64,000 nucleotides of DNA from an uncultured Chloroflexia bacterium (GTDB taxonomy: Bacteria > Chloroflexota > Limnocylindria > Limnocylindrales > CSP1-4). The notes below the pieces were generated by a model. It was given only the letters and a program-made list of their open reading frames with translations, had not been told where the DNA came from and did not search any database. The DNA lies in contig CAWKHN010000022.1 of the NCBI GenBank assembly GCA_963849495.1, positions 37,576 through 101,575 on the forward strand, given 5' to 3'. The position numbers were made by a program, and so were the translations under genes. Below, piece after piece: positions 667-64,000 of this stretch (the first letter of the stretch is position 1; each line of letters begins with the position of its first letter).

Positions 667-682
667 CGAGAGGAGCTAGAGC

Positions 683-11873: not shown

Positions 11874-12899
11874 ATGATCGAACTCGAGACCCCGCAGATC
11901 GAGCCCGTCGCCGAGGCCGGCACGTACGCCAAGTACGAGGCCGGACCGTTGCAGGCGGGGTATGGCGTCACCCTTGGCAACGCGCTGCGCCGCGTGCTGC
12001 TCTCCTCCCTCGAGGGGGCAGCCGTCACGTCGATCCAGATCCGTGACGTGTACCAGGAGTTCTCGACGATCCCGGGCGTGAAGGAAGACGTCACGCAGAT
12101 CGTCCTCAACGTCAAGAAGCTGCGCCTCAAGAGCTACGCGACCCACCCGGTCCAGCTGCGCCTCATCAAGAGCGGCGCCGGCCCGGTCATCGCCGCGGAC
12201 ATCACCGAGTCGGCCGATATCGAGATCGTGAACTCCGACCTCGTCCTGATGACGATCGACTCGGACGACGTCACGATCGAGATGGACCTGACCGTCGAGC
12301 GCGGCGTCGGGTATCTCGCGGCCGAGCGCTCCGAGGCCCTTCCCATCGGCGTGATCGCCGTCGACGCGATCTTCACGCCCGTGCTCAAGGTCAACTACTG
12401 GGTCGAGAGCACCCGGGTCGGTCAGATGACCAACTTCGACAAGCTCACGATCGAGATCGAGACCGACGGCACGATCACCCCGGAAGAGGCGCTGTCGCGC
12501 TCCGCGGACATCCTGGTCCACCAGTTCCAGCCGTTCGTCACCGTCGGGGTCCAGGCCGTCGCGCCGGACAACGCCGCGCCGGGCGTGCCGCAGCTGCCGC
12601 CGAACATGCTCGACATGCCGATCGAGGAGCTGGACCTGCCGATGCGGGCCTACAACTCGCTCAAGCGCAACAACATCGTCAAGGTCGGGCAGCTGCTCCA
12701 GCTCAAGGACGACGACCTGCTCCGCATGCGCAACTTCGGCAAGAAGTCGCTGGACGAGATGAAGGAGCGCCTGCGGATGCGGGGCTTCATCCTCCCGGAG
12801 ACGGAGTCGGACGGCGCCGTCGACGGTGACGACGAGGACGCATCGCTCGACGACGCGTCGCTCGACGACGCGTCGCTGGGCGACGAGGAGGCAGGCTGA
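11874..12899 (+). CDS. rpoA: DNA-directed RNA polymerase subunit alpha
   Basis: 341 aa with an N-terminal domain (GYGVTLGNALRRVLLSS) and a C-terminal domain (ELDLPMRAYNSLKRNNIVKVGQL). Confidence 0.95.
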   Translation: MIELETPQIEPVAEAGTYAKYEAGPLQAGYGVTLGNALRRVLLSSLEGAAVTSIQIRDVYQEFSTIPGVKEDVTQIVLNVKKLRLKSYATHPVQLRLIKSGAGPVIAADITESADIEIVNSDLVLMTIDSDDVTIEMDLTVERGVGYLAAERSEALPIGVIAVDAIFTPVLKVNYWVESTRVGQMTNFDKLTIEIETDGTITPEEALSRSADILVHQFQPFVTVGVQAVAPDNAAPGVPQLPPNMLDMPIEELDLPMRAYNSLKRNNIVKVGQLLQLKDDDLLRMRNFGKKSLDEMKERLRMRGFILPETESDGAVDGDDEDASLDDASLDDASLGDEEAG

Positions 12900-42616: not shown

Positions 42617-44059
42617 ATGCCACGGCCGCGCGACCCACCGGAGCACCTCGTGACCCCCGACGCCATCGACCCGAACAGCGTCGCGCCCGCCTTCGCCAAC
42701 CTCGAGACCATCGTGTCGCTGTCCAAGCGCCGCGGATTCGTCTTCCCCTCGTCCCAGATCTACGGCGGGATCAATGCCGTCTGGGACTACGGCCCCCTCG
42801 GCGTGGAGCTCAAGAACAACGTCAAGCGCGCCTGGTGGCGGGCGATGGTCCAGGACCGGAACGACATCGTGGGCCTCGACGCGGGCATCCTGATGCATCC
42901 GCAGGTGTGGGTGACCTCCGGGCATGTCGGCTCCTTCAGCGACCCGCTGGTGGAGTGCGGAACCTGCCGCCGTCGCTACCGCCTCGACGAGCTGCCCGGC
43001 GCGGAGGACCTGTCGGCGACGGACCTGCGCGACGAGACGATCGTCACCCGGCTCGGCCTCGTCTGCCCCAACGACGGCGGCCCGCTGTCCGCGCCGCGCC
43101 GGTTCAACCTGATGTTCACGTCGCACATGGGTCCCGTCGAGGACGAGGGCTCGATCGTCTACTTCCGGCCCGAGACCGCACAGGGCTCCTACGTCAACTT
43201 CAAGAACGTCCAGCAGAGCTCGCGCAAGAAGATCCCATTCGGCATCGCGCAGATCGGCAAGTCGTTCCGCAACGAGATCTCGCCCGGCAACTTCGTGTTC
43301 CGGATGCGCGAGTTCGAGCAGATGGAGATGCAGTACTTCGTGCGGCCCGGCGAGGGCGCCGAGCGGGCGTTCGAGGAGTGGCTGCCCAGGCGCAGGGCGT
43401 GGTACGAGGCGTATGGCGTGACCCCGGAGCGGCTCCGCTTCCGCGAGCACGCCGCCGACGAGCTGGCCCACTACGCGAAGAAGGCCGTGGACGTCGAGTA
43501 TCGGTTCCCGTTCGGCTGGAAGGAGCTCGAGGGCATCCACAATCGCGGCGACTTCGACCTCGGCAATCACGCGAGGGCGTCCGGCGAGAACCTCGAGTAC
43601 TTCGACCAGGCGACCGACGAGCACTTCATCCCGTGGATCGTCGAGACCGCCGCAGGGGCGGATCGGGCGGCATTCACGTTCCTCATCGACGCCTATCGCG
43701 AGGAGGAGGTCCGCGGCGAGAAGCGCGTCGTCCTCGGCCTCCACCCGGAGCTCGCCCCGTACAAGGTGGCGGTCCTGCCCCTGCTCAAGAAACGGCCCGA
43801 GATCGTCGAGATGTGCCACCGCCTGCTCGCGGATCTCAAGCGCGACCTGATGGCGGTCTACGACGACACCGCGGCGATCGGCAAGCTCTACCGGCGCCAG
43901 GACGAGATCGGCACGCCGTGGTGCGTGACGGTGGACGTCGACTCCCTCGATGACGGGGCGGTGACCATTCGCGACCGCGATTCGATGACCCAGGAGCGCG
44001 TGCCGCTCGAGGGTGTCAAGCGCCTGATCCTCGACCGGATGGCGGCCGTCCGGCCGTAG
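42617..44059 (+). CDS. glyQS: glycine--tRNA ligase (dimeric class II GlyQS)
   Basis: [11 protein letters not shown]..., class II motifs [25 protein letters not shown], and a C-terminal anticodon-binding domain. Confidence 0.92.
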
Positions 44060-47969: not shown

Positions 47970-50774
<2,805 letters not shown>

Positions 50775-50835
50775 CGCGACAGCGGGGCGGCGCAGCGCGA
50801 CACGCCGCACCACACCGACAACCCCGAGCCATCCC

Positions 50836-50865
50836 GGAGCCCGGCGGAGCGATCCGCCGGGCTCC
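50836..50865. terminator. 12-bp perfect GC hairpin (ggagcccggcgg-agcgat-ccgccgggctcc) ~60 nt downstream of ppdK
   Basis: A perfect inverted repeat in the intergenic region; candidate intrinsic terminator or attenuator. Confidence 0.35.
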
Positions 50866-51031
50866 GTCGCGTCCGGCGACGGCTGCGCCGGCCGGCGGTC
50901 GTTCGCCGTGCTGACCTCCGGATAGGGCAACCCACCCACGCTTTCGAGGGTGGACCGGAGGTGCGTCGCGGTGGCACGATAGGCCCCCGGAACGCTGACG
51001 CGAGTCGGGAGCCTAACGGGGAGGGCTGCGA

Positions 51032-52804
51032 TTGCGAGAGCCAGGATCCGGCAGCGGAGCCGGACGAGCCCGAGGACCGGATCCCGTGCCGCCCGTGGTC
51101 CCGGCCAAGATCCGGGTGCCGTCGCCGGCGGCCTTGCCGCGCGAGCGCCTCGAGTCGCGGCTGCGCGAGGCGCTCCGGCGGCGCCTGACCCTTGTCGTCG
51201 CCCCGGCCGGCTCCGGCAAGACCACCCTTGTCGCGCGGCTCGCGGGTACCTGCGGCATGCCGGTGGGCTGGTACCGCGCCGAGACATGGGACGCGGACGA
51301 GCGATCCTTCATCCGGCACGTGGAGGCGGCACTCCTGGCCGCGGTTCCCGGGCTGCCCGCGGGCTGGGCCGGCGTGGAGGATGCCGCACGCAACCTGGAG
51401 ACCCGATTGGAATCGGGTCCCGTCCTGCTCGTCATCGACGACTTCCACACGCTCGAGGACACTGAGGCCGAATCCGCGTTCGGGCGGCTGGTCGACTACG
51501 CGCCACCATGGCTCGCGATCGTCGTCGCGTCGCGGGTGGTGCCCCGTGTGAACCTGACCAGGCTCCGGGTTGCCGGGGAGCTCCTGGAGCTCGGACCGGA
51601 CGACCTCCGGTTTCGGGCCTGGGAGGTCGAGGAGCTGTTCCGTGACATCTACCACGACCCGGTTCCGCCTGGCGACCTGGCCGTGCTGGCGAGGCGCACG
51701 GAGGGCTGGGCCGCCGGCCTCCAGCTGTACCACCTCGCGACCCGCGGCAAGTCGGTCGAGGAGCGCCGCCGGGTCCTGACCGGGGCTGGCTCGAGCGTCC
51801 GCCTGGTCCGCGAATACCTCGCGAGCAACGTGCTGTCCGGGCTCCCCGACGAGCTTCGGCGGTTCCTGCTCGACACCTGCGTGCTCGGCCGGTTGTCGGG
51901 CCGGCTGTGTGACGAGCTGCGCGGAGAGCACGGCAGCACGGCGATCCTCGAGGATCTTGCCCACCGCGGCGTGTTCACAGTTCCCGTGGAGGATGCGGAC
52001 GACGCATACCGGTACCACGAGGTGCTGCGTCAGCACCTGGACCGCATGCTCGTGGAGGAGGTCGGCGAGGCACGGGCCCGGGCACGCCATGCGGCCGCCG
52101 GCAGGCTGCTGGAGACCGACGGCGCGCTGTCCGAGGCTCTCCGCGCGTACTGTCGGGCCGAGGATTGGGACGCCCTGCGCCGCCTCCTCGGGATGCAGGG
52201 AGAGCGGCTGGCGGCCACCAGCGAGCGCGCCTGGGTGGACGTGGTGCCGCCGGCGATCGAGCGGCACGACCCGTGGGTGGCCCTGGCCGCGGCACGACGG
52301 GCACGGAACGCCGGGCGCTGGGCGGCGGCGCTGGACGCCTACGCGCGGGCTGCATCAGCGTTCGGGGCAGCGCCCGCGGCCGACATCGCGCGCCGGGAGC
52401 GGCGGGCCCTGGCGGGCTGGCTCGACCCGGCCGCGACACAACCGACGACCGCCGTCGGCCAGCTCCGCGGCGGACTGATCCGCGAGCCCGCGGCCGCGGC
52501 CCGCGACGCGTCGCGGCTGGACGACCGCGAGACCCCGGTCGTCCACGGTCTGCTGGCACTCGCGGCCGGCGACGTTCTCGCGGCCAGGCGCCAGCTCGAG
52601 TCGGCGGCCGACACCGGGGAGGCCGGTCCCATTGCGTGCGCAGCGGCACGTCTCGCGGCTGCGGTGGCCGGCGTGCTGGCCGGAGAGCCCGTGGACCCGC
52701 GGATCCGTCGACCGGGCCGTGGACGAGGCGGAGAGGGCGGGTGTGCCGTGGCTTGCGCGCCTGGCACGGGAGATCGGCGTTCGTCTCGGCGACGAGCCGG
52801 ATGA
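51032..52804 (+). CDS. STAND/AAA-type NTPase regulatory protein (N-terminal part of a probable frameshifted large regulator)
   Basis: Walker A LVVAPAGSGKTTLVARLAG and Walker B LLVIDDFHTLED, followed by a helical/TPR-like region. The frame closes at 52804 while a +1 frame carrying SARP-like sequence opens at 52632. Confidence 0.6.
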   Translation: MREPGSGSGAGRARGPDPVPPVVPAKIRVPSPAALPRERLESRLREALRRRLTLVVAPAGSGKTTLVARLAGTCGMPVGWYRAETWDADERSFIRHVEAALLAAVPGLPAGWAGVEDAARNLETRLESGPVLLVIDDFHTLEDTEAESAFGRLVDYAPPWLAIVVASRVVPRVNLTRLRVAGELLELGPDDLRFRAWEVEELFRDIYHDPVPPGDLAVLARRTEGWAAGLQLYHLATRGKSVEERRRVLTGAGSSVRLVREYLASNVLSGLPDELRRFLLDTCVLGRLSGRLCDELRGEHGSTAILEDLAHRGVFTVPVEDADDAYRYHEVLRQHLDRMLVEEVGEARARARHAAAGRLLETDGALSEALRAYCRAEDWDALRRLLGMQGERLAATSERAWVDVVPPAIERHDPWVALAAARRARNAGRWAAALDAYARAASAFGAAPAADIARRERRALAGWLDPAATQPTTAVGQLRGGLIREPAAAARDASRLDDRETPVVHGLLALAAGDVLAARRQLESAADTGEAGPIACAAARLAAAVAGVLAGEPVDPRIRRPGRGRGGEGGCAVACAPGTGDRRSSRRRAG

Positions 52805-53993
52805 CGCCGCCGACGGCGCCCGGCGAGCCTCCGCGCCGGGCCTCGCGGATGATGAGTGGGGCCCTGCCCTCCTGGCGCTCGCCGATGCCTGGACCGGTGG
52901 CGCCGATCCCGAGGACCGCCTGACCTCGGCCGAGATCGCCGCCGCCGCGTTCCGGCGCGTCGGCGCCGCCGTGCTCGAGGCGTGGTCCCGCGGCCTGGCC
53001 GCAATCGCCCTTGCCCAGTCGGGCGCACCCGATGCCCGGGACGTCGCGCTCTCGGTCGAGAGCCTGGGACGCGCGACGGGTACGCCGGCGGCGCGGCTGC
53101 TGGCCTATGCGGCCCTCGCGGGCATGGGCGAGGAGCGGAGCGAGGAGTTCGCCGTCCTGGCCGCATCCGTCGCCACGGAGACGGGGCTGGAGGTGCCGCA
53201 ATCCATGGCCGTGCCGCCGGATGACGTCGCGACGCGCCCCGGGCCGGCGGGGTCACAGGGCATCGTCCGTCTTCACACGTTCGGAGGATTCATTTTCGAG
53301 CTGGATGGACGGCGCGTGCCGCTCGATGGAGCAAAGCCGCGGGTTCGAGCGCTCCTCCGTCTGCTTGCCGTCAGGGGCGGTGCCCCGGTCCACCGTGAGG
53401 TGATCCAGGACGCGCTGTGGCCCGAGGCCGACGCGGCCGCAGGTGCCCGCAGCCTGCACGTCGCCGTGTCGGCTCTCCGGCGGCTGCTCGACGACGTTGC
53501 GCAGCCGGTCGGCGGAGGGCTGGTGGCCCGGCAGGGGGATGCCTATCGGCTTGACCTGTCCCCGGACGACGTTGACACCGGGCGGTTCGAGCGCGCGATC
53601 GCCGATGGCCGTGCGGCCCGGGCACGCGGAGAGAGTGCGTCGGCCGCGTTCGAGTCCGCGCTGGAGCTCTACGCCGGCGAGCTGCTGCCCGAGGACGGAC
53701 CAGCGGACTGGGTGATCGACGATCGGGAGCGATACAGGAACGAGGCACTGGAGGCGGCTCAGGCGATCGCCGAGAAGGCGCTGCTCGACGGCGACTTCTC
53801 AGTTGCCGTCCGCGCATGCCGGTTCGGCATCGGGCTCGACCGCTACCAGGACAGCCTGTGGCGCGTGCTCATCGAGGCGCGAGATCGCGCCGGGGACGCA
53901 GGGGCCGCGGCTCGTGACCGCCGGGACTATGCGCAGGTGCTCGAGGGCCTCGGCGTCACGATCCCGGACCAGTCTCCCGTCAGCCCGAACTGA
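52632..53993 (+). CDS. SARP-type (OmpR-family winged helix + BTAD) domain protein; probable C-terminal continuation of the upstream STAND ATPase
   Basis: HTFGGFIFELDGRRVPLDGAKPRVRALLRLLAVRGGAPVHREVIQDALWPEADAAAGARSLHVAVSALRRLL matches a trans_reg_C winged helix. ALELYAGELLPED...WRVLIEA is BTAD-like. Confidence 0.6.
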   Translation: MRAQRHVSRLRWPACWPESPWTRGSVDRAVDEAERAGVPWLARLAREIGVRLGDEPDDAADGARRASAPGLADDEWGPALLALADAWTGGADPEDRLTSAEIAAAAFRRVGAAVLEAWSRGLAAIALAQSGAPDARDVALSVESLGRATGTPAARLLAYAALAGMGEERSEEFAVLAASVATETGLEVPQSMAVPPDDVATRPGPAGSQGIVRLHTFGGFIFELDGRRVPLDGAKPRVRALLRLLAVRGGAPVHREVIQDALWPEADAAAGARSLHVAVSALRRLLDDVAQPVGGGLVARQGDAYRLDLSPDDVDTGRFERAIADGRAARARGESASAAFESALELYAGELLPEDGPADWVIDDRERYRNEALEAAQAIAEKALLDGDFSVAVRACRFGIGLDRYQDSLWRVLIEARDRAGDAGAAARDRRDYAQVLEGLGVTIPDQSPVSPN

Positions 53994-54371
53994 GATCGGG
54001 GGACAGCTGCCAGGCTGTTGCCGTCACACGTCCGACGTCGGCGGCGGTCACGGGATCGGAGATCCTGCGCTCGTCACGCCCAGGCAACCGCCACGCGATC
54101 GAAGCTCCCGCGTTCGGGGGCGCTGCTCGTGATCGCCAGGTTTCCCGCTCACGCACCTCGAGTGTCTACCCGAGCCAACTCTGTGTCGCGACCTCGGACG
54201 TCGGCGGAACGACGTCGGCTGCCTGAGGACGGCAGCAACGGGGTCGGTCGAGGTGACAGACCGTAATGACGCCGAGCCTGTCGGGACCCACGATCGTCGT
54301 GCACTGCAATTACAGCCCTGTCCGGCTGCGTGGATTGGCGTGGCCCGCTCCAGCTTAGAGGGTGGCGGCGA

Positions 54372-55946
54372 ATGAAATCTGCACTGATTCGCCGCTTCCC
54401 ACCCGCCGCCACGCGGAAGGTGTTGCCCCTCGCCGCGCTGCTGGCCTTCGTCGTGGTCAGCACGTCCGTGCGAGCGGCAGAGCAGGTGAACCTCGGAACG
54501 GCCACAGGCTTCGCGGTTCTGGCCGGCACCACCATCACGAACAACAATTCGACCACGATCACCGGTGACATCGGCGTGAGCGGCCCCGCCACCACCTCGA
54601 TAACGGATAACGGCACCTTGACGCTGAACGGCACCAGCTACTACGGCGAAACCGTCGCTGACACTGCCCAGGCCGACCTGCACGCCGCGTACGACGCGAC
54701 TGCCGCGCTCCCATCGACGTCCTCAATCGGTGGAGCCCTCGGTCCTCTCCAGACGCTTGGCCCAGGCGTCTACTCTTCGGACGCCGCCTTCAACCTGACG
54801 GGCACCCTGACTCTCGACGGCGAGGGCAACTCGGACGCCGTGTTCATCCTCCGGACAGGGGCCGCGCTCACCACCGCGGCATCCAGCGTTGTCTCGCTCG
54901 AGAACGGCGCAGATGCCTGCAACGTCTTCTGGGTGGTCAACGACGCGGCAACCCTTGGCGCATCGACGGTCTTCAAGGGGACCATCATGGCGGGGGCGGC
55001 GATCACGCTGGGCGCCGGAGCGAGGATCGATGGTCGTGCGCTGTCTCTCAGCGCCGCAGTCACCATGGACGCGAACACAATTGACGTCGGCACATGTGGG
55101 GCCCCGACCGCGATGCCGAGCCTCAGGCTCGCCAAGCACGTCATCAACGACAACGGCGGCACCGCCGTCGCGGGCGACTGGACCCTCTCTGCCGGCGCCT
55201 TCTCGGTGACCGGCTCGGAGGCGGCCCAGGAGGTCACCGACCAGGCCGGCACCTACGCCCTCTCCGAGACGTCGGTCCCGGGCTACGCCACCACCTCGAT
55301 CACCTGTGACGACGCCCCCGGCGTCGGGGTCACCTCGGTGACGATCGGGCCCGGTGAGACCACGACCTGCACGTTCGTCAACGACGACACCGCACCCGAT
55401 GCGACGCCCACACCGGCCCCGACGCCGACCCCGACACCGACCCCGACACCGACGCCGACCCCGACGCCGACCCCGACACCGACCCCGACACCGACGCCGA
55501 CCCCGACGCCGACCCCGACGCCGACCCCGACGCCGACCCCGACCCCGACGCCCACGCCCATCCCGACACCCACGCCCATCCCGACCCCTACCCTGACACC
55601 GACCCCGACGCCGACCCCGACGCCGACCCCGACGCCCACGCCCATCCCGACCCCTACCCTGACACCGACCCCGACGCCGACCCCGACGCCGACCCCTACC
55701 CTGACCCCGACCCCCACCCTGACCCCGGATCCGACCGTGGGTCCGACCGTGGATCCGACCCCTACTGGGTCGATCGAGGCTGGGGACATCGCCCTACCGC
55801 CCACGGACGTGACCGGTCCAGGTCCAGGCCCGGCCGGGGGCCAAACGTGGATTTCGTTCCTGCTCTTCCTGGCCCTGGCCTCATCCGCCCTGCTTGTATC
55901 CGCCCTGATACCTGGGCTGCCGAAGCGGCGGCGCGGACGACGGTGA
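54372..55946 (+). CDS. secreted DUF3494 (ice-binding-like) protein with prealbumin-like domain, (PT)n linker and C-terminal hydrophobic anchor
   Basis: Signal peptide MKSALIRRF...[17 protein letters not shown]3494/IBP-like beta-solenoid segment [38 protein letters not shown]...[41 protein letters not shown]. Then DWTLSAG...TTCTFVND, ~100 aa of TPTPTP, and a C-terminal [32 protein letters not shown]. An alternative start lies at 54330. Confidence 0.6.
55405..55730 (+). repeat. coding hexanucleotide tandem repeat (ACNCCN)n encoding (TP)n linker
   Basis: ccgacaccgaccccgacgccgacc units repeated >50 times. This produces spurious ORFs in the other frames and strand (55283..55987-, 55354..55596+). 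Confidence 0.85.
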
Positions 55947-55996
55947 GAAGCGCCGCGAGGCGGCTGTCGCCGGCCAGATGGTGGCAACCGGCAAGC

Positions 55997-57469
55997 TCAG
56001 CCCTTGCTGAAGAACTCCAGCTCGGACAACACGACCGGGGTGCCGGTCGGCCCGTTGGTGTCGACGACCTTGATCTGCACCGAGTCGACCTTTGAGGCCG
56101 ACAGGTCGAACGTCTGCGAATCGTGGACGTCCTCGAGGTTCAGCGTCGTTGAGGTGCCGTCGGAGAACGTGAGCTGCAGCGTCGCCGGACGGCGCATGTC
56201 GACGAACGAGTTTTCCGAGCCCGAGTGCACGATCACGGCCCCCAGGTCCACGGGTGTCTTGAACGTGATCGTGAGCGACGGCGTGGCGCCGTTGGCCTCC
56301 CAGTCCGTGTTGGTGTAGGTGTCGAATGCGAGCCGGCCCTCGTGGCCCTTGATCTCCTCGGAGGCAGTGACGGTCACTGGTCGCACCGGCTCGAGCGTCG
56401 GCGAGACGATCTTGCGGATGTTGTCGATGACGCCCGGAACGCCGCCGCCGATGGCCTCGTCGATGTACTTGTGGAACGAGGGGACGCCGATGTAGCCGAA
56501 GATGCCGACCGCAACGACGAGCCCGAGCCCGATCTGGAGGAGGCTTCGCAGCCGCAGGATCGACCGGATGCCCGAACGGGCCCCGGCTTTCATCGAGCCC
56601 CCGCGCTCCCCGGCGGCGAATGCCTTGGGCGGCTTCCGCTTGCGTCGGAAGATCCGGCGCCACCAGGGGAGGGTCTTCTCCGACACGACGGCCGCCGCCA
56701 CAAGGCTTTCACCGCAGCGCCGGCAGAACCGGCGCGCGGGATCGTTCGGCTCGGCGCAGGTGCCGCAGATGCGGTCACCGGGCTGGGCCACACGGGCCTC
56801 GACACCGGCGACGGGCCTGGGTCGAGCGGGAGATGCCTCGGTCGGCATCCGCGCGGCCGGCTGTTGCGAGACCGGTTCGCTGGGCATGCGCGGCGCAGGT
56901 TCGACCGGAGGCGCGGCAGCCGGGCCGGGGCGGGCCGGTGGGATGGCGCCGGGGCGGACGGGCGCCGGCTGGAGCGGGGGGGCCGGCTGCGAGGGCGCCG
57001 GCTGGGGCGCCGGTCCGACGGCAGGCGGCGGGACGATCCCACCGGTGCCGGCTGCCCCGAAGGTCACTGACGCTGCACGCGACGGACCCCCGTGGCGGGC
57101 GACCGGCGCGGGAGCTGGTTCCGGCTCGGGCTCGGGCTCAGGTTCCGGCTCTCGGTCGGGTTCGGGCGTGGGTTCCGGCTCGGGCTCGGGCTCAGGTTCC
57201 GGCTCTGGTTCGGGTTCGGGCGTGGGTTCCGGCACCGGTTCGGGTTCCCGCATCGGTTCGGGTTCCGGCACCGGTTCGGGTTCGAGGACGGTCTGGGGCT
57301 GCGGCTCGGGCTCAGGTTCCGGCTCGGGCTCCGGTTCTGGCTCCGGTTCGGGAACGGGCTCCGGCTCCGGTTCGGGCTCCGGCGCACGCGTGGGTTCCAC
57401 CACCGGCTCCGGTTCGGGAACGGGCTCCGGCTCCGGTTCGGGCTCCGGCGCACGCGTGGGTTCCACCAC
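55997..57469 (-). CDS. membrane protein: (PE)n disordered region, zinc ribbon, single TM helix, C-terminal discoidin-like (F5/8 type C-like) ectodomain
   Basis: N-terminal EPEPEP repeats and a Pro-rich segment. [19 protein letters not shown] zinc ribbon. TM helix [20 protein letters not shown]. The C-terminal ~170 aa ([16 protein letters not shown]...[12 protein letters not shown]...[10 protein letters not shown]...) has the hallmarks of a discoidin/carbohydrate-binding domain. Probably fused with the ORF 57528..57995. Confidence 0.55.
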
Positions 57470-57760
57470 CGGCTCCGGTTCGGGCTCGGGCTCAGGTTCC
57501 GGCTCTGGCTCGGGTTCGGGCGTGGGTTCACACCGGCTCCGGTTCGGGCTCGGGCTCAGGTTCCGGCTCAGGCTCAGGTTCCGGCTCAGGCTCAGGTTCC
57601 GGCTCAGGCTCAGGTTCCGGCTCAGGCTCAGGTTCCGGCTCAGGCGCGGGTTCGGGCTCCGGCTCGGGTTCGGGCTCCGGCTCCGGCTCAGGTTCGGGCT
57701 CCGGCTCAGGCTCAGGTTCCGGCTCAGGCGCGGGTTCGGGCTCCGGCTCCGGTTCTGGTT
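57115..57760 (-). repeat. coding hexanucleotide tandem repeat encoding (PE)n / (EP)n
   Basis: ggttccggctcgggctcaggttcc... units on the + strand (GSGS in + frames, PEPE on the minus frame) over ~650 bp. This spawns multiple spurious ORFs (57092..57985+, 56502..58031+, 57064..57531-). Confidence 0.85.
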
Positions 57761-57995
57761 CGATCACCACGACGCGGTCCGCGGGAGACCAGCCACCTCT
57801 CGACAGGCCGGTGGGGGTCGCGGGCGGTGCCGGTTTGGCGGGGGCCGTCGGCGTCGGGGCGTCCGTCCCGGGGGCCTCGGTGCCCTGGTCAGCCTCCTTC
57901 TGGCCGACCCATTCGAGGAACTGGCCGCAGTTCCCGCAGAACGCGTCCGTCGCCTCGTTCCGGTGGCCGCAGTTCCCGCAGATGATCACGCACAC
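57528..57995 (-). CDS. double zinc-ribbon N-terminal module followed by (PE)n repeats; probably the N-terminus of the 55997..57469 gene separated by a frameshift inside the repeat
   Basis: [29 protein letters not shown] is two CxxC pairs. The ORF ends inside the PE repeat. The next ORF starts 59 nt later in a different frame, with the same repeat and orientation. Confidence 0.5.
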
Positions 57996-58062
57996 ACTCC
58001 CCGAGGTCCTCGCCGGTGGGGCAGAGGATAGTCGGGCGCCGCCGCTCGCGGGAGCCCGCCCG

Positions 58063-58620
58063 TCACGCCTTCGCCGCCGTGCCCTTCACGATCTCGATCC
58101 GGTGCAGGACATGAGCCGGCTTGGCCGCCGCCACGAGCGCGTCGAGCCGCTGCGTGTCGACGGCCCGCGGGTCGGGCACCGTCACCCGGACCACGACCAG
58201 GGGCTCCGGCGAGCCGGGCAGCTCGCCTCCCGGGTCCACCGACCAGCCGGTCGCGCCATTCTCGACGATCTCGACGTGGCCGCCGGTCTGGATCTCCACC
58301 TGGCCCGCAAGACCAACCGCCGTGCCCCGCATCCGGTACAGCTCGACCGCACGGGCCACGATGGCTCGCCGCCGGTCCTCGTCCCAGCCCTCGTCCAGGG
58401 CGATCCCCACCCAGCCGGCCAGCCAGGACAGGAAGTCCTCTGGAGCCAGCCATGGGTCGAGGTAGGCGTCGAAGTTGTCCAGCGTGCTGAACACCGGTGC
58501 CAGCACCTCGTCGAGGCCCGACAGGAACCGCTGGGCGAAGTCGTCGTCCTGGTACAGCGCGGGCAGCGATGGTCCCAGCGGATGCGGTGACCGGAGCCCG
58601 GCGATGGTGCCGCGCATCAC
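58063..58620 (-). CDS. phage tail protein I-like baseplate protein (eCIS Afp12/Cis12-like, TIGR02242-type)
   Basis: [82 protein letters not shown] matches the P2 gpI / 'phage tail protein domain' family. ATGA overlap with the upstream baseplate J gene. Confidence 0.8.
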
Positions 58621-60563
58621 GCCCCCTCGACCAGCACCTGGTGCTCGTAGCTGAAGACGAGCGCGTGCGTCTCGAGCTCGAGGCGCTGGGTCTGCTGGCC
58701 GCGCTGCCCGGTCACCGGGTCGGCCCCGAACAGGCGGGCGTCCTCCACCACCTCCGTGCCGCGCAGGGCCTGGAGAACCGAGTAGACCTCGCCCACGCTG
58801 ATCGGCCGGCCGAACGGCCAGCCGGTCCCGTCCGGGCCTCCGGTGATCGGGTGGAAGTACTCGTACAGGGCGGCGAGCGCCTCCTCCTGGAGCCGCGTCG
58901 GGTTGACGCGCGGCCTCGCCTTGAGCTTGGCCACGATCGTGATGCCGCGGTAGACGGGCGGCTCGACGATGGCGCGGGTTCCGATCACGCGGCTCTCGTC
59001 CAGCCGGTCGGTGATCTTCTGGAGGGCGTCCGGGCTGGGAACGAGCTGCTCGAACCGCAGGCGGCCCTGCTCGGCGATGGCGGACGGCACGATCAGCACC
59101 CGGACCGAGCCCGCGTCGGCACCGTCACCGGCGGCGACCGCGCGCACGCGGGCGACATCGGGAGCGGCGTCGCGGGCCAGCTGCTCGTAGTCCTCGGTGG
59201 TCACCGCGCGGCCACGGGCGCGCAGCCGGATCGGCCCCCGGATCTTGGCGTTCTCGATGTCCTCACCGTCCACGCCGCCCCGCGCCGGCCGCCGGTTCTC
59301 GACGCGCGACACGAACGGGATCGAAGACTTGAGGACGCTGATCGACCGCGGGGCCACGTTGCCGCGGCGGCCGCCACCGGTGCGGTACTCCCGAAGCCGG
59401 AGGTGGGCACCCTTGGCCGGCACCGCCCCGTAGCGCCGCAGCACGCCGTCGGCTTGCCGGACCGCCGGTCCGAGGCGCACCTCACCCGCCGACAGGTCGA
59501 GCACGAAGTGGTTGTCGTCCGGGCCGCTGCCCGCGAAGTCGGCGACGTGGGTCCACTCGTCCCAGCCCTCACCGCCGGTGACCTCGAGGACCGGCGTGCC
59601 GTCGCCGGGCACGACGGGGCCACGCTTGAGGGGGAAGCGCTGGCCGGACACGCCGTCGGAGATGCCGACCTCCTCCTCGTGGACGAGATCCGCGTTCACC
59701 GCGTCGACCGTGCCGCCGATCGTGATCGCGGTGAGGCCCGTGATGTTCGGGGACCCGCTGTACGCGGGCTGGCCCTCGGACAGCTCCGTGACGCGAGCCC
59801 GGAGCCAGCCGGCCCGCTGCTTCGAGATGAGCGATGCGACGTGGCCCTTCGGGACGTGGACCACGACGTCGCCGTCCCGGTTGAGGCCGCCGGTCGAGTC
59901 CGCGTCCAGCTCGCATGGCTCCCACTCGTCGCCCGTCCAGGCCTCCCAGGCAAGCGGCGGGTTCGTCGGGTCCACGCCGACCCCGTCGATGTCCGCCTTG
60001 AACCGGAGCCGGACGGCGTTCGACGGGACCGCCTCGGACAGCCCGATGTACAGCGCGTCGCCGGGTTGGGGAACCTGCTGGAAGCAGAACACCTCGGTGC
60101 CCTTCTCGAGGGCGCTGCCATGATCGCGAAGCGTCTTGCCGTCGATCATCGAGCCGATCCGTGCCAGCGAGCTCGGCACGATCGGCAGGTCCTCGATGGT
60201 CGCGAACGCGATCGCCTCGTCCGTGTCGGTGCGGATCGTGGCCACCTGGGTGCCGGCCGCGATCGTGACCACGTCCGGCTGAGGCCCCGAGAGCCAGAAC
60301 GTGACGGCGGTCCGCGCGGCGGTGGGCGGATAGAGGCTGACGCCGATCAGCTCCAGGAACTTCACGTAGTTGCGGTCCGGCACGCGGTTGAGGCGGTACA
60401 CCACCTGGTCGGTCATCCAGGCAAACAGCTCGATGAGCGTCACGCCCGGGTCGGAGACGTTGTGGTCGGTCCATTCCGGGCAGCGCTGCTGGACGAGCCG
60501 CTTGGCATCGTCCACGAGGTCCTGGAAGCGGCGGTCGTCGAGGTTGGGAACCGGCAGGGCCAT
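58617..60563 (-). CDS. baseplate J-like assembly protein (eCIS Afp11/Cis11-like)
   Basis: 648 aa. MALPVPNLDDRRFQDLVDDAKRLVQQRCPEWTDHNVSDPGVTLIELFAWMTDQVVYRLNRVPDRNYVKFLELIGV is the conserved N-terminus of the 'putative baseplate assembly protein' (gpJ/gp6-like) family. Overlaps the gp25 gene stop. Confidence 0.85.
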   Translation of the reverse strand: MALPVPNLDDRRFQDLVDDAKRLVQQRCPEWTDHNVSDPGVTLIELFAWMTDQVVYRLNRVPDRNYVKFLELIGVSLYPPTAARTAVTFWLSGPQPDVVTIAAGTQVATIRTDTDEAIAFATIEDLPIVPSSLARIGSMIDGKTLRDHGSALEKGTEVFCFQQVPQPGDALYIGLSEAVPSNAVRLRFKADIDGVGVDPTNPPLAWEAWTGDEWEPCELDADSTGGLNRDGDVVVHVPKGHVASLISKQRAGWLRARVTELSEGQPAYSGSPNITGLTAITIGGTVDAVNADLVHEEEVGISDGVSGQRFPLKRGPVVPGDGTPVLEVTGGEGWDEWTHVADFAGSGPDDNHFVLDLSAGEVRLGPAVRQADGVLRRYGAVPAKGAHLRLREYRTGGGRRGNVAPRSISVLKSSIPFVSRVENRRPARGGVDGEDIENAKIRGPIRLRARGRAVTTEDYEQLARDAAPDVARVRAVAAGDGADAGSVRVLIVPSAIAEQGRLRFEQLVPSPDALQKITDRLDESRVIGTRAIVEPPVYRGITIVAKLKARPRVNPTRLQEEALAALYEYFHPITGGPDGTGWPFGRPISVGEVYSVLQALRGTEVVEDARLFGADPVTGQRGQQTQRLELETHALVFSYEHQVLVEGA

Positions 60564-60565
60564 GA

Positions 60566-60964
60566 TCAGTCTCCTCCCGGGATCACGTAGAACGGGAACA
60601 CCAGGTTGCGGCGGTCGTTCGTCCGCCGGATCGCGTACCGGATGTCGATGTACATGACGGTGGGGTCCTTCGCGTCGAAGCTCACGACGACGTCCTCGAC
60701 CTCGATCCGGGGCTCCCAGCGGCGCAGCGCCGCCTTGACCTCTGCCGCGATCGCCGATGCCGTCGTCCCGTCGGCGGATGCGAAGACGTAGTCGTGGATC
60801 CGGCAGCCGAAGTCGGGACGCATCGGGCGCTCGCCCGGCGCGGTGCCGAGGATCAGGCGGATCGCCTCCTCGATCTCGCGCTCGCGCGAGACCAGCGCGA
60901 TGCCGCCGGTCGCGTCGGTTCGCAGCGGGAACGCCCAGCCGCGTCCGATGAACTCGTCGCTCAC
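60566..60964 (-). CDS. GPW/gp25 baseplate wedge protein (eCIS Afp9/Cis9-like)
   Basis: 132 aa. GRGWAFPLRTDATGGIALVSREREIEEAIRLILGTAPGERPMRPDFGCRIHDYVF...RWEPRIEV is a textbook gp25/GPW lysozyme-like fold signature. Confidence 0.88.
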   Translation of the reverse strand: MSDEFIGRGWAFPLRTDATGGIALVSREREIEEAIRLILGTAPGERPMRPDFGCRIHDYVFASADGTTASAIAAEVKAALRRWEPRIEVEDVVVSFDAKDPTVMYIDIRYAIRRTNDRRNLVFPFYVIPGGD

Positions 60965-60974
60965 GCCGGCCTCC

Positions 60975-61364
60975 TCACGCCACGCTCACGTCGGTGACCG
61001 TCGCCAGCGGCTGGCCCGGCACCTGGGCGCACATCGCGACCTGCGAGCTGGTGGTCGCGATCGGCTTGCCGCCGGCCGTCACCGTGGGGCTGCCGCTGAG
61101 CACCCTCCCCTGCTCGGTCGTCGGCACCATGAACGGGTCCGCCGGGTGGAGGCCCACGTGCGGCGGCGTGTTGAAACCGGACGAGCCCACGACGGCGACG
61201 GCCTTGCCGCCGATGGTCACCGTCGCCTCCAGGCCCTGGAGCAGCGGAGCGGAGAAGGGGAGCGGGGCGGGCGAGGGCTGCGGCGCCCCCGTTGCCGGGT
61301 TGGGCACCTGGTGGATCGTGCACTGGCCCTGGATCTTGTCGCCCATGACGAGGGGTTGTGCCAT
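60975..61364 (-). CDS. PAAR-like spike tip protein (eCIS Afp10/Cis10-like)
   Basis: Only the C-terminal 129 aa of track ORF 60975..62456 (from MAQPLVMGDKIQGQC). Gly/Val-rich beta-prism-like sequence with Cys/His (CTIHQV, HVGLHPADP, AMCAQ). Lies between vgrG and gp25, so the PAAR call rests on position and composition. ATG verified at 61362-61364. Confidence 0.65.
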   Translation of the reverse strand: MAQPLVMGDKIQGQCTIHQVPNPATGAPQPSPAPLPFSAPLLQGLEATVTIGGKAVAVVGSSGFNTPPHVGLHPADPFMVPTTEQGRVLSGSPTVTAGGKPIATTSSQVAMCAQVPGQPLATVTDVSVA

Positions 61365-61375
61365 CTCCTGCTCGT

Positions 61376-63073
61376 TCAGTTCAGCGCGACCGTGGCGCCC
61401 TTGATGGCCGTCTGGCCGGACGCCTTGATCTCGACGCTGGAGGCGTCGACCTTGAAGCTGCCCTGCGTCTTGACCTCCACGTCGCCCGTGCCTTCGAGCA
61501 GCAGCTTGCCGTCGAAGTAGACGTGGACCTGTCCCTTGGTCTCGTTGAGCGAGATCCGGAACTTGTTGTCCGCCGAGATCAGGGCGATCCCGGACTCGCC
61601 CGGGTCGTCGAAGAACACCAGCTTGTGGCCGCCGCGCGACACGAACCCGGAGCGCTTGACGGTGCCCGCGTCGAACAGGCCGTCGCCCAGGGGGGCCGTG
61701 TCCTTGCCGTTCCACAGGCCGCCGATGACGATCGGGTGGGAGATGTCTCCCTGCTCGAAGGCGACCAGCACCTCGTCGCCGACCTGCGGCACCCAGACCA
61801 TCCCGTATTCCTTGCCTGCCCCGGGCTGGGACAGGCGGGCCCAGGACGACTCGGCGTCGTCGGACAGCCACGGGAAACGGAGCTTCACCCGGCCCATCGA
61901 CTGGGGGTCGTCGTTGTCGGTCACGATCCCGGGGACGACGCCCGGGATCCGGTTGCCGCCCCCGCCTCCGCTCCCGCCCGAGCCCTGGGCGAGGAGCCCG
62001 TGGATGGAGCGATCCTGGCGGCCGGTGAACTCCAGGAACGTGCGATAGGCGCCGGCCCCGAACTCGTGGCGGGAGCCCGTGATGACCCACTTCCCGGCCA
62101 GTGCGGGATCGACGCCGCTGATGCTCACCGCGACGCCCGCCTTGAGGGCCGGGGAGCCGACGGCCACGGCTGTCGCCTCGAAGGCGGCGCTGCCCACCTG
62201 CTGGCTCCGGGCCGTGGCGAGATCGTCCGCCGTTCCCTGTGACCCCACGGGGTGATCCACGACGGTGAGCGTCTGCCCGCCCACCTTGCCGGCGAGGTCC
62301 GCGGGGCTGACCGAGAGCTGGGCGTTGGCTGCGGTCACGGTTGCCTGGCCGACGATGGCCTCCTTGGCATGCGGGTCCCAACCCCGCACCTTGACGTCTG
62401 CCACCTGCGACACCGCGCTGATCCGGGCGCGGAACTCGAGCAGGTTGTGGCCCCACACGAGCTGGACGGGGTTTTCGGTGTCGAGATCGCCCGCACCCGG
62501 AGCGCCGGAGGACTCGACCGGCTTCTTGAACAGCAGCGTCTCGTCGTCGACACGGCAGTCGAACCCGATCCGGCGAGCGACCCCGTACAGGAACTCCAGG
62601 TCCGACTGGTTCGCCTGGATGACATGCTCGACGGTGCTGCCGGAATCGTCGACGTCCGCACCCAGGCCGGCGTCGCCGGCGATCCGGGACGCGATGTCGG
62701 AGTACTTCACGTTCTGGTAGGTGGTGGTCTTCCGGCCGGCCGCCAGCCGGTGGGACTTGTCGTAGCCGCGGACCACGGCCCGCGTGCCGAGCGAGTCATA
62801 GTCGGCTTCGATCGAGGTGACCTCACCCGTGATGAGCGGCTCCGGGCTGTCGCCGGTGAGCGCCGTCGTCGAGATCCGGACCTTCCTGCCGACCTCGAGG
62901 CCGGCCCGTCCGAGGATGTCGCGCTCCGGGTCCCGGAACACGAGCGTGAACATGTCGGGCATCGCGAGGCGATCCACCACGAGCGCGCTCTCCAGCTGGT
63001 GCTCGACGTCGGGCGCGAGCTCGGCGCCCTCGACCTCGACGATCCGCTGGGTGGAGGCGGTGGAGGTGGCCAT
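61376..63073 (-). CDS. VgrG / phage late control D - gp5-like spike protein (eCIS Afp8/Cis8-like)
   Basis: 565 aa. N-terminal gpD-like domain. Central GIVTDNDDPQSMGRVKLRFPWLSDDAESSWARLSQPGAGKEYGMVWVPQVGDEVLVAFEQGDISHPIVIGGLWNGKD (Phage_base_V/OB-fold signature). C-terminal beta-helix-like GQVHVYFDGK...VEIKASGQ. Confidence 0.88.
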   Translation of the reverse strand: MATSTASTQRIVEVEGAELAPDVEHQLESALVVDRLAMPDMFTLVFRDPERDILGRAGLEVGRKVRISTTALTGDSPEPLITGEVTSIEADYDSLGTRAVVRGYDKSHRLAAGRKTTTYQNVKYSDIASRIAGDAGLGADVDDSGSTVEHVIQANQSDLEFLYGVARRIGFDCRVDDETLLFKKPVESSGAPGAGDLDTENPVQLVWGHNLLEFRARISAVSQVADVKVRGWDPHAKEAIVGQATVTAANAQLSVSPADLAGKVGGQTLTVVDHPVGSQGTADDLATARSQQVGSAAFEATAVAVGSPALKAGVAVSISGVDPALAGKWVITGSRHEFGAGAYRTFLEFTGRQDRSIHGLLAQGSGGSGGGGGNRIPGVVPGIVTDNDDPQSMGRVKLRFPWLSDDAESSWARLSQPGAGKEYGMVWVPQVGDEVLVAFEQGDISHPIVIGGLWNGKDTAPLGDGLFDAGTVKRSGFVSRGGHKLVFFDDPGESGIALISADNKFRISLNETKGQVHVYFDGKLLLEGTGDVEVKTQGSFKVDASSVEIKASGQTAIKGATVALN

Positions 63074-63082
63074 GCCGGGACC

Positions 63083-63832
63083 TCAGGCGTTCCGCGCCGC
63101 GTCGGCGAGGCTCGGGATCAGCAGCACGGTGCCGGCCGGCAGCCGCATCGGGTCGTCGATTCCGTTGAGCGCCGCGATCGCCCGCCAGTACGCCGGCTTG
63201 CCGAGCTCGCTGTGGGCGACGGACTGGAGGGTGTCGCCCTCGATCATGGTGTGGACGCGCCGGCTGTTGGCTGCGTGCGAGGTCGGGTTCTGGCTGCCGA
63301 TCTGCTCCTGCTGGCCCTCGATCGTGATGTCGACCTTGGCCTGGACCGGCGTGCCGTCCTTGCGGAACACGGTGTAGTTGACGACGACGCTCTTGAGGTA
63401 GCCGCTGAAATCGTCCAACTGGGGGTTGCCGCCCCACTTGAACGAGACCGCGGGCGGGCACGGCTTCTTCCTGTCCCGCGAGGCCGCCGTCGGCCGCGTC
63501 CACGAGAGCAAGGTCGTGATCTTGGGGGTGACGTTGCCCTCCCCTGAAGCGAAGTCGTCGAAGAACAGCTGGGTCGTGAGCGTCATCGCGTTGGTGCCGC
63601 TGAACTCCGGCGTGCCGCCATCCGTGGCGGGGGTCCGGTTGCGGGTCACGTTGAGGGTCTGGGTCAGGCGGTACTCGGTCGGGTTGAACATGCACTCGAT
63701 CTCGGTCACACCCGAGGGCAGGTTGCTCCCGACGCAGACGATCCTGGCCCTGTCGACGTGTTGACCCGCACGCTGGGTCAGGTCGCCCGCACCGATCGTT
63801 CCGGTGTCCGATTGGAGTGATTGCAGCACCAT
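63083..63832 (-). CDS. tail tube-initiator-like protein with C-terminal LysM domain (eCIS Afp7/Cis7-like)
   Basis: N-terminal T4 gp19/tube-like segment (EIECMFNPTEYRL). C-terminal LysM (HTMIEGDTLQSVAHSELGKPAYWRAIAALNGIDDPMRLPAGTVLLIP). Confidence 0.75.
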   Translation of the reverse strand: MVLQSLQSDTGTIGAGDLTQRAGQHVDRARIVCVGSNLPSGVTEIECMFNPTEYRLTQTLNVTRNRTPATDGGTPEFSGTNAMTLTTQLFFDDFASGEGNVTPKITTLLSWTRPTAASRDRKKPCPPAVSFKWGGNPQLDDFSGYLKSVVVNYTVFRKDGTPVQAKVDITIEGQQEQIGSQNPTSHAANSRRVHTMIEGDTLQSVAHSELGKPAYWRAIAALNGIDDPMRLPAGTVLLIPSLADAARNA

Positions 63833-63907
63833 CGCGCCGGCCTCAGACGGACCCGTCCGGCGACGGGCCGCCGGTCGGGGTGTCGGTCCGCGATCCGCCG
63901 CGGGCGC

Positions 63908-64000
63908 TCATCCGGCGATCTCCTGGTACGCGATCTCGAGCGACTCGGTGGCCACGCTGTTGCTCATCACGTCGAGGCTGGGGCCGGTCCACTTGACCGG
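63908..64000 (-). CDS. 3' end of an upstream minus-strand gene (truncated by window edge); possibly a further CIS component
   Basis: The open frame ends ...PVKWTGPSLDVMSNSVATESLEIAYQEIAG, with its stop at ~63908-63910. Identity cannot be assigned from 30 aa. Confidence 0.3.
   Translation of the reverse strand, partial: PVKWTGPSLDVMSNSVATESLEIAYQEIAG

Follow-up and report, generated by a model that had tools for sequence, protein, structure and literature searches.

A probable single regulator gene with a MalT-type STAND module and a C-terminal SARP module, split by one extra base beside a contractile injection system operon in a Limnocylindria genome

Two overlapping open reading frames, ORF A and ORF B, lie on the + strand of the window, the whole stretch of 64,000 nucleotides that was analysed (Table 1). 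They represent one gene, for a probable signal-gated activator, beside a contractile injection system (Afp/eCIS-type) operon. The gene is broken by a single extra base, for which an assembly error is the favoured explanation, with a probability of roughly 60 %. The initial annotation had described the coordinates of the two frames, the +1 offset of ORF B and an overlap of ~170 bp, and had proposed one gene of ~980 aa with a 1-nt indel near 52700-52715; the overlap proves to be 173 nt, and the extra nucleotide can be placed at 52703-52706. Removal of one base within these four positions restores a protein of 968-986 aa. The likely true start is the GTG at 51086, which is also the start called in the nearest relative, and the earliest possible start is the TTG at 51032.

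Table 1. Positions of the regulator gene, its parts and the neighbouring operon within the window.
Feature	Position	Strand	Remarks
ORF A	51032-52804	+	590 aa (ORF listing)
Regulator gene, 5′ part, frame A	51032..52703	+	NOD and first half of the helical sensor
ORF B	52632-53993	+	453 aa; +1 frame relative to ORF A; overlap 173 nt
ORF B out-of-frame head (MRAQRHVSRLRWPACWPESPWTRG)	52632..52702	+	No homology; homologues follow frame A here
Site of the single extra nucleotide	52703..52706	+	DNA alignment with L001; protein consensus RxxDRAVE
Regulator gene, 3′ part, frame B	52704..53993	+	Second sensor half, linker, winged helix, BTAD; stop 53991-53993
ORF A out-of-frame tail (IRRPGRGRGGEGG...)	52707..52804	+	No homology; homologues follow frame B here
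OmpR-type winged helix	about 53265-53567	+	Trans_reg_C (Pfam), 28.4 bits, cut-off 26.2
BTAD	about 53574-53948	+	Pfam, 44.3 bits, cut-off 22.1
Contractile injection system (Afp/eCIS-type) operon, 3′ half	55997..64000	-	Convergent on the regulator
Zn-ribbon/Pro-Glu-repeat/TM/F5-8C-like protein	55997-57995	-	Frame-broken near 57520
Tail_P2_I	58063-58620	-	Pfam
Baseplate_J	58617-60563	-	Pfam
gp25	60566-60964	-	Pfam
Small ORF	60961-61323	-	PAAR match in L001
VgrG-like spike	61376-63073	-	Pfam
CIS_tube+LysM	63083-63832	-	Pfam

The nearest relative, contig_28154 of ERZ25039483 (hereafter L001), shares 92-94 % DNA identity with the window and is without the extra base. In the DNA alignment, the window reads CGG-ATCC-GTC and L001 reads CGG-ACC-GTC, so that a single codon of L001 is matched by four nucleotides in the window. 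The GC content of the three codon positions follows frame A up to about 52640-52700 and frame B beyond it. The homologue alignment fits the family consensus in frame A as far as ...GEPVDPR and, one residue later, in frame B (VDRAVDE...), which agrees with the earlier view that the overlap is protein-like in frame A up to about 52710 (...VLAGEPVDPR) and in frame B thereafter. In an alignment of 41 sequences the junction fits the family consensus with its length unchanged, and the tail of ORF A and the head of ORF B are by-products of the frame break. A frame-segmentation scan of the + strand of the window identifies the same region as the only junction at which the frame changes in the absence of a stop codon, the change occurring 183 nt before the next stop; the remaining + strand looks clean, with this single junction among roughly 45 + strand genes. 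A second + strand junction called by the scan sits in a Pro-Thr repeat and was rejected as a composition artefact.

Homology points to one polypeptide. The repaired protein matches more than 1,660 proteins, and more than 1,000 single-polypeptide homologues align with it end to end. Among the 120 best homologues, 115 are single chains of 950-1050 aa (coverage at least 93 %, identity 55-77 %) that carry WHD_MalT, Trans_reg_C and BTAD, and L001 reads through the site uninterrupted. The single polypeptides considered in the initial annotation are therefore what the family consists of for the most part, and homologues occurring consistently as two genes with the same overlap, the opposite outcome that it had envisaged, were not seen. 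On this comparison, ORF A and ORF B are two halves of one gene. In the AF2 model (mean pLDDT 81.5), residues 557/558 fall within a continuous helical-repeat domain (pLDDT 87-94), which would place the break point inside a folded domain and away from any domain border. A genuine pair of genes, with an NTPase/sensor protein and a sensor/SARP protein encoded separately and acting together, would accord with the two ORFs that a gene caller would report at this locus and with the separately called 225-aa Trans_reg_C+BTAD ORF of L001. However, such an arrangement is very improbable given the single-chain homologues and a predicted break within, rather than between, domains; in addition, the overlap consists of out-of-frame sequence that has no homology, and before the junction ORF B has a TTG within that sequence as its sole start.

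A single surplus nucleotide is all that separates the two frames, which otherwise join seamlessly, as would be expected if the unaltered sequence yielded the full-length regulator through programmed +1 ribosomal frameshifting of the kind known from prfB. However, the local CCG CGG AUC CGU contains no in-frame stop or rare codon, and a Shine-Dalgarno-like stimulator with the spacing known from prfB is likewise lacking; the GGAG closest to the site lies about 18 nt upstream. L001 stays in one frame at this site, and so do the 22 orthologues from non-MFD MAGs, none of which is interrupted (22/22); the frame breaks of other MAGs occur at scattered positions. Because the +1 site is not conserved, programmed frameshifting is effectively refuted, and the break is neither programmed nor a conserved or evolved gene split.

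Purifying selection persists downstream of the break, also on the window's own branch. Values of dN/dS are 0.07-0.22 in every regulator segment, as compared with 0.14 for the PPDK control, and on the window's own branch the ratio of nonsynonymous to synonymous changes downstream of the break, 7:19, is no different from the 6:21 found upstream, the neutral expectation being 72 % nonsynonymous (binomial p=2.4e-6).

Circumstantial evidence suggests that the extra base most probably arose as an indel error in the consensus of a long-read metagenome assembly. The nearest public relatives of the window are the MFD MAGs, which are Nanopore-only and were assembled with Flye and given one Medaka polishing round (PMC12313526). 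The regulator is frame-broken in 7/24 MFD loci and in 0/22 others (p=0.0097), and when six conserved genes are considered, PPDK and Baseplate_J among them, 13/24 MFD loci have at least one that is broken, as against 0/22 (p=2.9e-5). Together with a second frame-broken gene in the window near 57520, 4.8 kb from the regulator break, the latter difference favours an assembly indel over a real mutation.

Less likely, the extra base is real and marks a very recent inactivation, or a truncation to a NOD protein that lacks the DNA-binding module, with an independent loss in L001 through a different 1-nt insertion. L001 indeed has its own extra base about 230 nt further downstream (L001:7849), and thus two close relatives have independent breaks within about 230 nt in the same gene. 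Across about 14 kb shared by the window and L001, no non-3n coding indel other than these two lies outside repeats, no further + strand frame break occurs in the window, and the site is not within a long homopolymer. Against a real mutation stand the second broken gene and the housekeeping genes that are often broken in the Nanopore-only MAGs of the clade and never in the other MAGs; moreover, L001 is itself a 1.9-Mb metagenome contig with ‘contig_N’ naming like that of the MFD contigs, which suggests a long-read origin. Constraint downstream of the break is not relaxed on either branch, and so any real mutation must be extremely recent in both lineages.

Independent breaks in the same 3-kb gene of two sister genomes are somewhat unexpected for random errors and could instead reflect parallel real loss; the clean remainder of the window and the position of the base outside a long homopolymer likewise run counter to an artefact. 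That two sister Limnocylindria lineages independently and very recently knocked out an eCIS master regulator is more doubtful still. If they did, parallel selection to silence the contractile injection system would be possible; alternatively, an internal start could free a sensor/SARP fragment from the NTPase switch, leaving the system deregulated. An assembly indel remains the preferred reading, and it counsels caution: wherever a high-GC metagenome-assembled genome shows a neat ‘frameshifted regulator’, a consensus indel is the likeliest cause, and in data of this type more than half of the related loci examined contain broken housekeeping genes. Methylation-linked basecalling error was rejected as a cause, since GATC occurs at 5 of 24 well-localised frame-break junctions from related MAGs, against an expectation of 3.7 (p=0.31), and none of the other 4-mers is conspicuous there once multiple testing is allowed for. 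The indel sites of the window and L001 both involve GATC in the window sequence.

At the N terminus of the restored protein is a NOD (NBD-HD-WHD), covering residues ~23-345, of a STAND NTPase of the MalT/LAL clade. It contains a Walker A motif (GxxxxGK[ST]; APAGSGKTT, residues 57-65, 51200-51226), a Walker B motif (hhhhDD; LLVIDDF, residues 132-138, 51425-51445) and the WHD motif YRYH with its histidine (52007-52018), a MalT-type RYHxL motif that corresponds to the MHD motif of NLRs. Residues G60, G62, K63, T65, D136, D137, R168, R327, Y328 and H329 do not vary among the 41 aligned sequences. Pfam AAA_22 reaches 27.1 bits (cut-off 27), ORF A matches the NCBIfam MalT model (E=3.5e-58, model positions 3-389, 197 bits) and the solved MalT structure PDB 8bob (8bob_C, 6e-34), and PF25873 WHD_MalT is precomputed on homologues and on the L001 product. 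The AF2 model, in which helices are followed by a strand at 326-328, also matches MalT in Foldseek (2.7e-11, 28 % identity). These motifs and matches confirm the earlier assignment of ORF A as a P-loop NTPase with helical repeats.

Comparison with MalT extends beyond this module. In both proteins the STAND NOD is N-terminal and contains the two Walker motifs, a sensor arginine and the WHD RYH motif, and in both the order is NOD, helical-repeat sensor and C-terminal DNA-binding output. However, the output of MalT is a LuxR/GerE HTH and that of the regulator is a SARP, comprising an OmpR-type winged helix and BTAD, and the sensor region has no detectable similarity to the MalT sensor. Assignment as a MalT orthologue or LAL regulator was rejected on account of this Trans_reg_C + BTAD C terminus; the 197 bits also fall far below the MalT equivalog cut-off of 537, and the protein is therefore not a MalT orthologue.

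The second half of the helical sensor ends at ~53190 and is followed by a disordered linker and the SARP module (residues about 745-972 of 986), in which the winged helix is directly followed by BTAD. ORF B matches EmbR (2fez, 2.6e-10), and Foldseek also finds EmbR 2ff4. The AF2 model superimposes on the AfsR SARP of RNAP-promoter complexes (8k60_I/8hvr_I) with a target TM of 0.72-0.74 and an rmsd of 3.6-3.8 A over about 241 columns. The Pfam and structural matches uphold the description of ORF B as an OmpR-type winged helix plus BTAD, and the domain searches support the proposed MalT/LuxR-type order in which a C-terminal SARP replaces the LuxR HTH.

Like AfsR and other large SARPs (SARP-NB-ARC-TPR), and like EmbR, the regulator has a complete SARP module, which in the large SARPs is likewise joined to a STAND NTPase and helical repeats. 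It differs from AfsR and the large SARPs in that the order is reversed, the NTPase is of the MalT clade rather than NB-ARC, no biosynthetic cluster lies near the gene and the family occurs mainly in Chloroflexota rather than in Streptomyces. The SARP module is N-terminal in all SARP classes of a 2024 review (PMC10972967), whereas the module described here is C-terminal. The MalT-type order of NOD, sensor and C-terminal SARP thus lies outside every recognised SARP class, and yet it is the rule for a large family, so far uncharacterised, that occurs in Chloroflexota (Limnocylindria) and in some Actinomycetota. The initial annotation had called this order unusual, which holds with respect to characterised SARPs but not within the regulator's own large family, where it is standard.

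The regulator is flanked by PPDK, oxidoreductases and eCIS structural genes, and ten large ORFs sampled elsewhere in the window are mostly housekeeping genes (SecY, RpoA, GlmS-like). The initial annotation had noted that large SARPs typically control secondary metabolism and had asked about the target here; no biosynthetic cluster adjoins the locus, so that the regulator does not qualify as a cluster-situated activator of secondary metabolites, and what does adjoin it is the eCIS operon. Genes for Tail_P2_I, Baseplate_J, gp25 and VgrG lie downstream of the regulator in about 31/50 loci, which are practically all the related loci whose downstream flank reaches 3 kb or more; the operon is convergent with the regulator there, and the linkage holds in loci that have no PPDK neighbour and in two Actinomycetota MAGs (L035, L041). 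From this conserved synteny, the most likely target of the regulator would be the adjacent eCIS operon.

SlpR, the product of a Streptomyces gene, is also a large ATPase-containing LAL. Like eCIS GerE/BTAD shell genes and SCO4263/SlpR, the regulator is found at the end of a contractile injection cluster, and it differs from SlpR, which is LuxR-type, in its SARP output. Deletion of the cluster-end slpR, an SCO4263 homologue, resulted in no SLP particles being seen (PMC8505568), and SCO4263/SlpR has been described as a cluster-specific regulator (PMC8505568; PMC10020575). Geller et al. (2021, PMC8213781) count BTAD (PF03704) among the eCIS shell domains and propose GerE/BTAD genes as operon regulators. 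The present locus, with a BTAD gene beside an eCIS operon and conserved across taxa, fits the definition of an eCIS-associated gene in that study (PMC8213781). The published association is at the level of domain counts only, and the linkage seen here extends it. No published description was found of a MalT-NOD with a C-terminal SARP or of its near-universal CIS linkage in Limnocylindria. A family with this output falls outside the current SARP classification, in which the SARP is expected at the N terminus, and, being linked in nearly all cases to an eCIS in Limnocylindria and in some Actinomycetota, it offers a concrete candidate for a signal-gated master activator of the little-studied eCIS systems.

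By analogy with MalT and AfsR, the N-terminal module (NBD, helical domain and WHD with the YRYH histidine) would act as an ADP/ATP switch. The central alpha-solenoid could serve as a sensor that keeps the regulator inactive as long as no ligand or partner is bound. Upon binding, oligomerisation, which in STAND NTPases depends on inducer and ATP, might present the C-terminal SARP module to tandem DNA sites, where it would recruit RNA polymerase. The regulated target, as synteny suggests, would most likely be the neighbouring eCIS operon.

SARP proteins bind heptameric direct repeats with 11-nt (or 22-nt) spacing that overlap the -35 region. Conserved heptamer direct repeats at either spacing were not found upstream of the regulator in 45 loci, which gives no sign of autoregulation through such repeats. 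The case for eCIS regulation is one of synteny and analogy with the literature. Repeats at 54030-54220 had been put forward as a possible binding site. The repeats, at 54014-54236, comprise imperfect inverted copies (27-nt arms, 70 %; 13-nt arms, 92 %) and two direct copies 163-177 nt apart; with this orientation and spacing, and with the whole 2-kb segment 54001-55989 missing from L001, they were rejected as a binding site or RNA element. They fold no better than shuffled sequences (z=0.36), an Rfam search of 50700-56100 gave no match, and a scan of the same interval for sigma-70 promoters and intrinsic terminators found nothing.

A metagenome scan for the CIS tube protein returned mostly short contigs, and a clear eCIS operon start was not found in the best of them (L064). 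This contig does carry eCIS 5′ structural genes, namely those for sheath and tube, a 653-aa protein that has no Pfam match, and more tube genes.

ORF calls reproduced the coordinates, frame and overlap first reported for ORF A and ORF B, the two plus-strand frames read as halves of one regulator gene (see table). ORF A contains a P-loop NTPase (Pfam AAA_22/AAA_16) and covers positions 3-389 of the NCBIfam MalT model (E=3.5e-58), at a score of 197 bits that lies below the equivalog cut-off of 537, and ORF B ends in Trans_reg_C and BTAD domains, both exceeding Pfam thresholds. The codon-position GC pattern changes from that of frame A to that of frame B at ~52640-52700, and when the window's plus strand was scanned by frame segmentation this junction was the sole frame change that lacks a junction stop codon. 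A second plus-strand call, within a Pro-Thr repeat, is a composition artefact.

The gene is a frame-broken copy of a MalT-type STAND regulator with a C-terminal SARP module, belonging to a widespread, uncharacterised family. Joining frame A to 52702 with frame B from 52704 yields a protein of 986 aa, or 968 aa from GTG 51086, the more likely start. A database search with this protein matched >1,660 proteins; among the best 120 matches, 115 are single polypeptides (~950-1050 aa, at least 93 % query coverage, 55-77 % identity), all carrying WHD_MalT, Trans_reg_C and BTAD. The closest relative is P0016, the regulator on L001 (ENA ERZ25039483 contig_28154, 1.9 Mb), a locus collinear with the window at 92-94 % DNA identity. 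P0016 is uninterrupted across the break site (...GEPVDPRTVDRAVDEAERAG...), where pairwise DNA alignment pairs CGG-ATCC-GTC in the window with CGG-ACC-GTC in L001, one additional nucleotide in the window. The junction consensus of a 41-sequence alignment, GEPxDxRxxDRAVE, therefore indicates exactly one supernumerary nucleotide within 52703-52706. Together, the single-chain homologues, the L001 alignment and this consensus bear out the initial annotation's proposal of one gene split by a 1-nt indel. P0016 itself has a product of only 686 aa because L001 contains a separate extra base, ~230 nt downstream of the window's break.

An AlphaFold2 model of the repaired protein, built with the 41-sequence alignment (mean pLDDT 81.5), displays the domains listed in the table. 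In Foldseek searches the N-terminus matches MalT (8bob, 2.7e-11), a TPR-STAND protein (6mfv), Apaf-1, plant NLRs and ORC/Cdc6, and the C-terminal ~240 residues match EmbR, as well as the SARP module of AfsR from RNAP-promoter complexes (8k60_I, 8hvr_I; target TM 0.72-0.74). Invariant in the alignment are Walker A G60, G62, K63 and T65, Walker B D136 and D137, R168, and the WHD motif R327-Y328-H329. The break corresponds to residues 557/558, a helix start within the predicted solenoid (pLDDT 87-94) and no domain boundary, which is evidence against two naturally separate genes. Functionally, the layout is that of MalT/LAL regulators but with SARP in place of the LuxR HTH, as had been suggested. 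The domain order is indeed unusual relative to characterised SARPs, whose module is N-terminal in the small, medium, large and SARP-LAL classes (2024 review, PMC10972967), but it is standard within its own large database family, mostly Chloroflexota ("Ca. Limnocylindria") with a few Actinomycetota. Members are named "DNA-binding SARP family transcriptional activator" or "BTAD domain-containing putative transcriptional regulator"; a literature search found no paper with the phrase "C-terminal SARP" or "C-terminal BTAD".

By sequence comparison, the break is extremely recent if it is real at all. Between the window and L001 (dS ~0.18; NG86 throughout), dN/dS comes to 0.081 ahead of the window's indel, 0.069 between both indels and 0.218 past them (0.134 for the SARP part alone), as compared with 0.143 for the adjacent PPDK gene. 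When single-nucleotide differences were polarised by three outgroups, the window's own branch showed 6 nonsynonymous and 21 synonymous changes before the break against 7 and 19 after it (Fisher p=0.76). In the latter part, nonsynonymous changes fall far short of the 72 % expected under neutrality (binomial p=2.4e-6), and therefore frame B has been translated past the break for essentially the whole history of the lineage. A real mutation would thus need extreme recency, and the window also harbors a second frame-broken gene, near 57520. This orthologue of a 614-aa L001 protein runs through frame -2 (57989-57519) and frame -3 (57526-56000), with its junction (~57519-57526) inside a PEPEPV repeat. 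Otherwise the window is clean, and the breakage of the same gene in two sister genomes is a mild oddity; a real, very recent mutation therefore keeps some probability, though less than an assembly indel.

Homologues are single chains rather than two genes sharing the overlap: 22/22 orthologues from outside the MFD series (Nanopore-only, Flye-assembled MAGs with one Medaka polishing round; PMC12313526) are in one frame, versus one to five scattered frame changes in 7/24 MFD orthologues (Fisher p=0.0097). Breaks also affect PPDK, Baseplate_J, gp25 and the VgrG-like gene in MFD loci (L002, L004, L008, L025, L036, L037, L038, L043 and others), with one to six frame changes each, against none in the 22 loci of other series. 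Of six conserved genes compared, one or more are broken in 13/24 MFD loci versus 0/22 others (p=2.9e-5), so that frameshift findings in Nanopore-only MAGs call for caution in general. Programmed frameshifting was rejected: the site is not conserved, and the break shows no in-frame stop, rare codon or correctly spaced SD-like element. Selection, the breaks in MFD orthologues but not in those of other series, the second lesion and the lack of a frameshift signal together favor an assembly indel as the probable source of the extra base.

Features of the window and domains of the repaired regulator
Feature	Position	Strand	Remarks
SecY	7231-8508	+	sampled large ORF
RpoA	11874-12899	+	sampled large ORF
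GlmS-like protein	21047-22876	+	sampled large ORF
GlmU-like protein	34949-36460	+	sampled large ORF
Class II aminoacyl-tRNA synthetase	42617-44059	+	sampled large ORF
CNNM/CorC protein	within 1-44100	+	sampled large ORF
PPDK	47970-50774		upstream of regulator
ORF A	51032-52804	+	590 aa
ORF B	52632-53993	+	453 aa; +1 frame; 173-nt overlap with ORF A
Alpha/beta NBD	residues ~23-190		AlphaFold2 model
Helical domain	residues 196-297		AlphaFold2 model
WHD	residues 302-344		AlphaFold2 model
Long alpha-solenoid	residues ~345-720		AlphaFold2 model
Disordered linker	residues 725-741		AlphaFold2 model
Winged helix	residues 745-845		AlphaFold2 model
Helical BTAD	residues 848-972		AlphaFold2 model
Secreted protein gene	54330-55946		Ice_binding domain (4.5e-49), SpaA prealbumin-like domain, long Pro-Thr repeat, C-terminal hydrophobic/basic anchor
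Zinc-ribbon/Pro-Glu-repeat/TM/F5-8 type C-like protein	55997-57995	-	frame-broken; orthologue of L001 614-aa protein
Afp/eCIS-type operon, 3' half	55997-64000	-	convergent, downstream of regulator

A secondary-metabolism target, raised as a question at the outset, is not borne out by the neighbourhood, which holds no biosynthetic genes but instead PPDK and an operon for an extracellular contractile injection system (eCIS). Its 3' half encodes the zinc-ribbon/Pro-Glu-repeat protein, Tail_P2_I, Baseplate_J, gp25, a small PAAR-like ORF, a VgrG-like spike and CIS_tube+LysM. Structural genes of the 5' part were found on L064 (1-10200), a related metagenome contig, and encode the sheath, two gp19-type tube proteins and a 653-aa protein without a Pfam match. 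Limnocylindria MAGs share this operon, as do some Actinomycetota. The same CIS genes follow the regulator in ~31/50 related loci, essentially all those whose downstream flank reaches 3 kb or more, including loci without a PPDK neighbour (L015-L019, L030, L031, L039, L048) and two Actinomycetota MAGs (L035, L041), and therefore the tie is to the CIS and is not merely inherited gene order. This linkage agrees with published work, in which BTAD counts among the eCIS "shell" domains and neighbouring GerE/BTAD genes have been put forward as eCIS regulators (PMC8213781). The Streptomyces eCIS cluster has a LuxR-type regulator, SCO4263/SlpR, at its end, and SLP particles were not observed in mutants lacking slpR (PMC8505568; PMC10020575). 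By this analogy and from gene order, the family likely comprises cluster-situated activators of the contractile injection system. The zinc-ribbon/Pro-Glu-repeat protein, conserved between operon and regulator in ~31 loci, may serve the CIS as a membrane adaptor.

Directly after the regulator's stop codon, a 1,990-nt segment (54001-55989) missing from L001, a 93 %-identical relative, looks like a lineage-specific insertion; its secreted protein gene has no relatives in 50 loci. The palindromes at 54014-54236, initially put forward as a possible regulator binding site, make poor candidates: they are imperfect, sit inside this segment, fold no better than shuffles and have no Rfam match. SARP binding sites are direct rather than inverted repeats; none of this type was found upstream of the regulator.

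Window positions 1-44100 (+) form a dense housekeeping region in which no plus-strand frame breaks were detected; the regulator/eCIS locus therefore lies on the chromosome rather than on a mobile element. Approximately 60 nt past the PPDK stop is a perfect 13-bp GC-rich hairpin (50835-50867; CGGAGCCCGGCGG-agcgat-CCGCCGGGCTCCG), probably a T-tract-less terminator between PPDK and the regulator.
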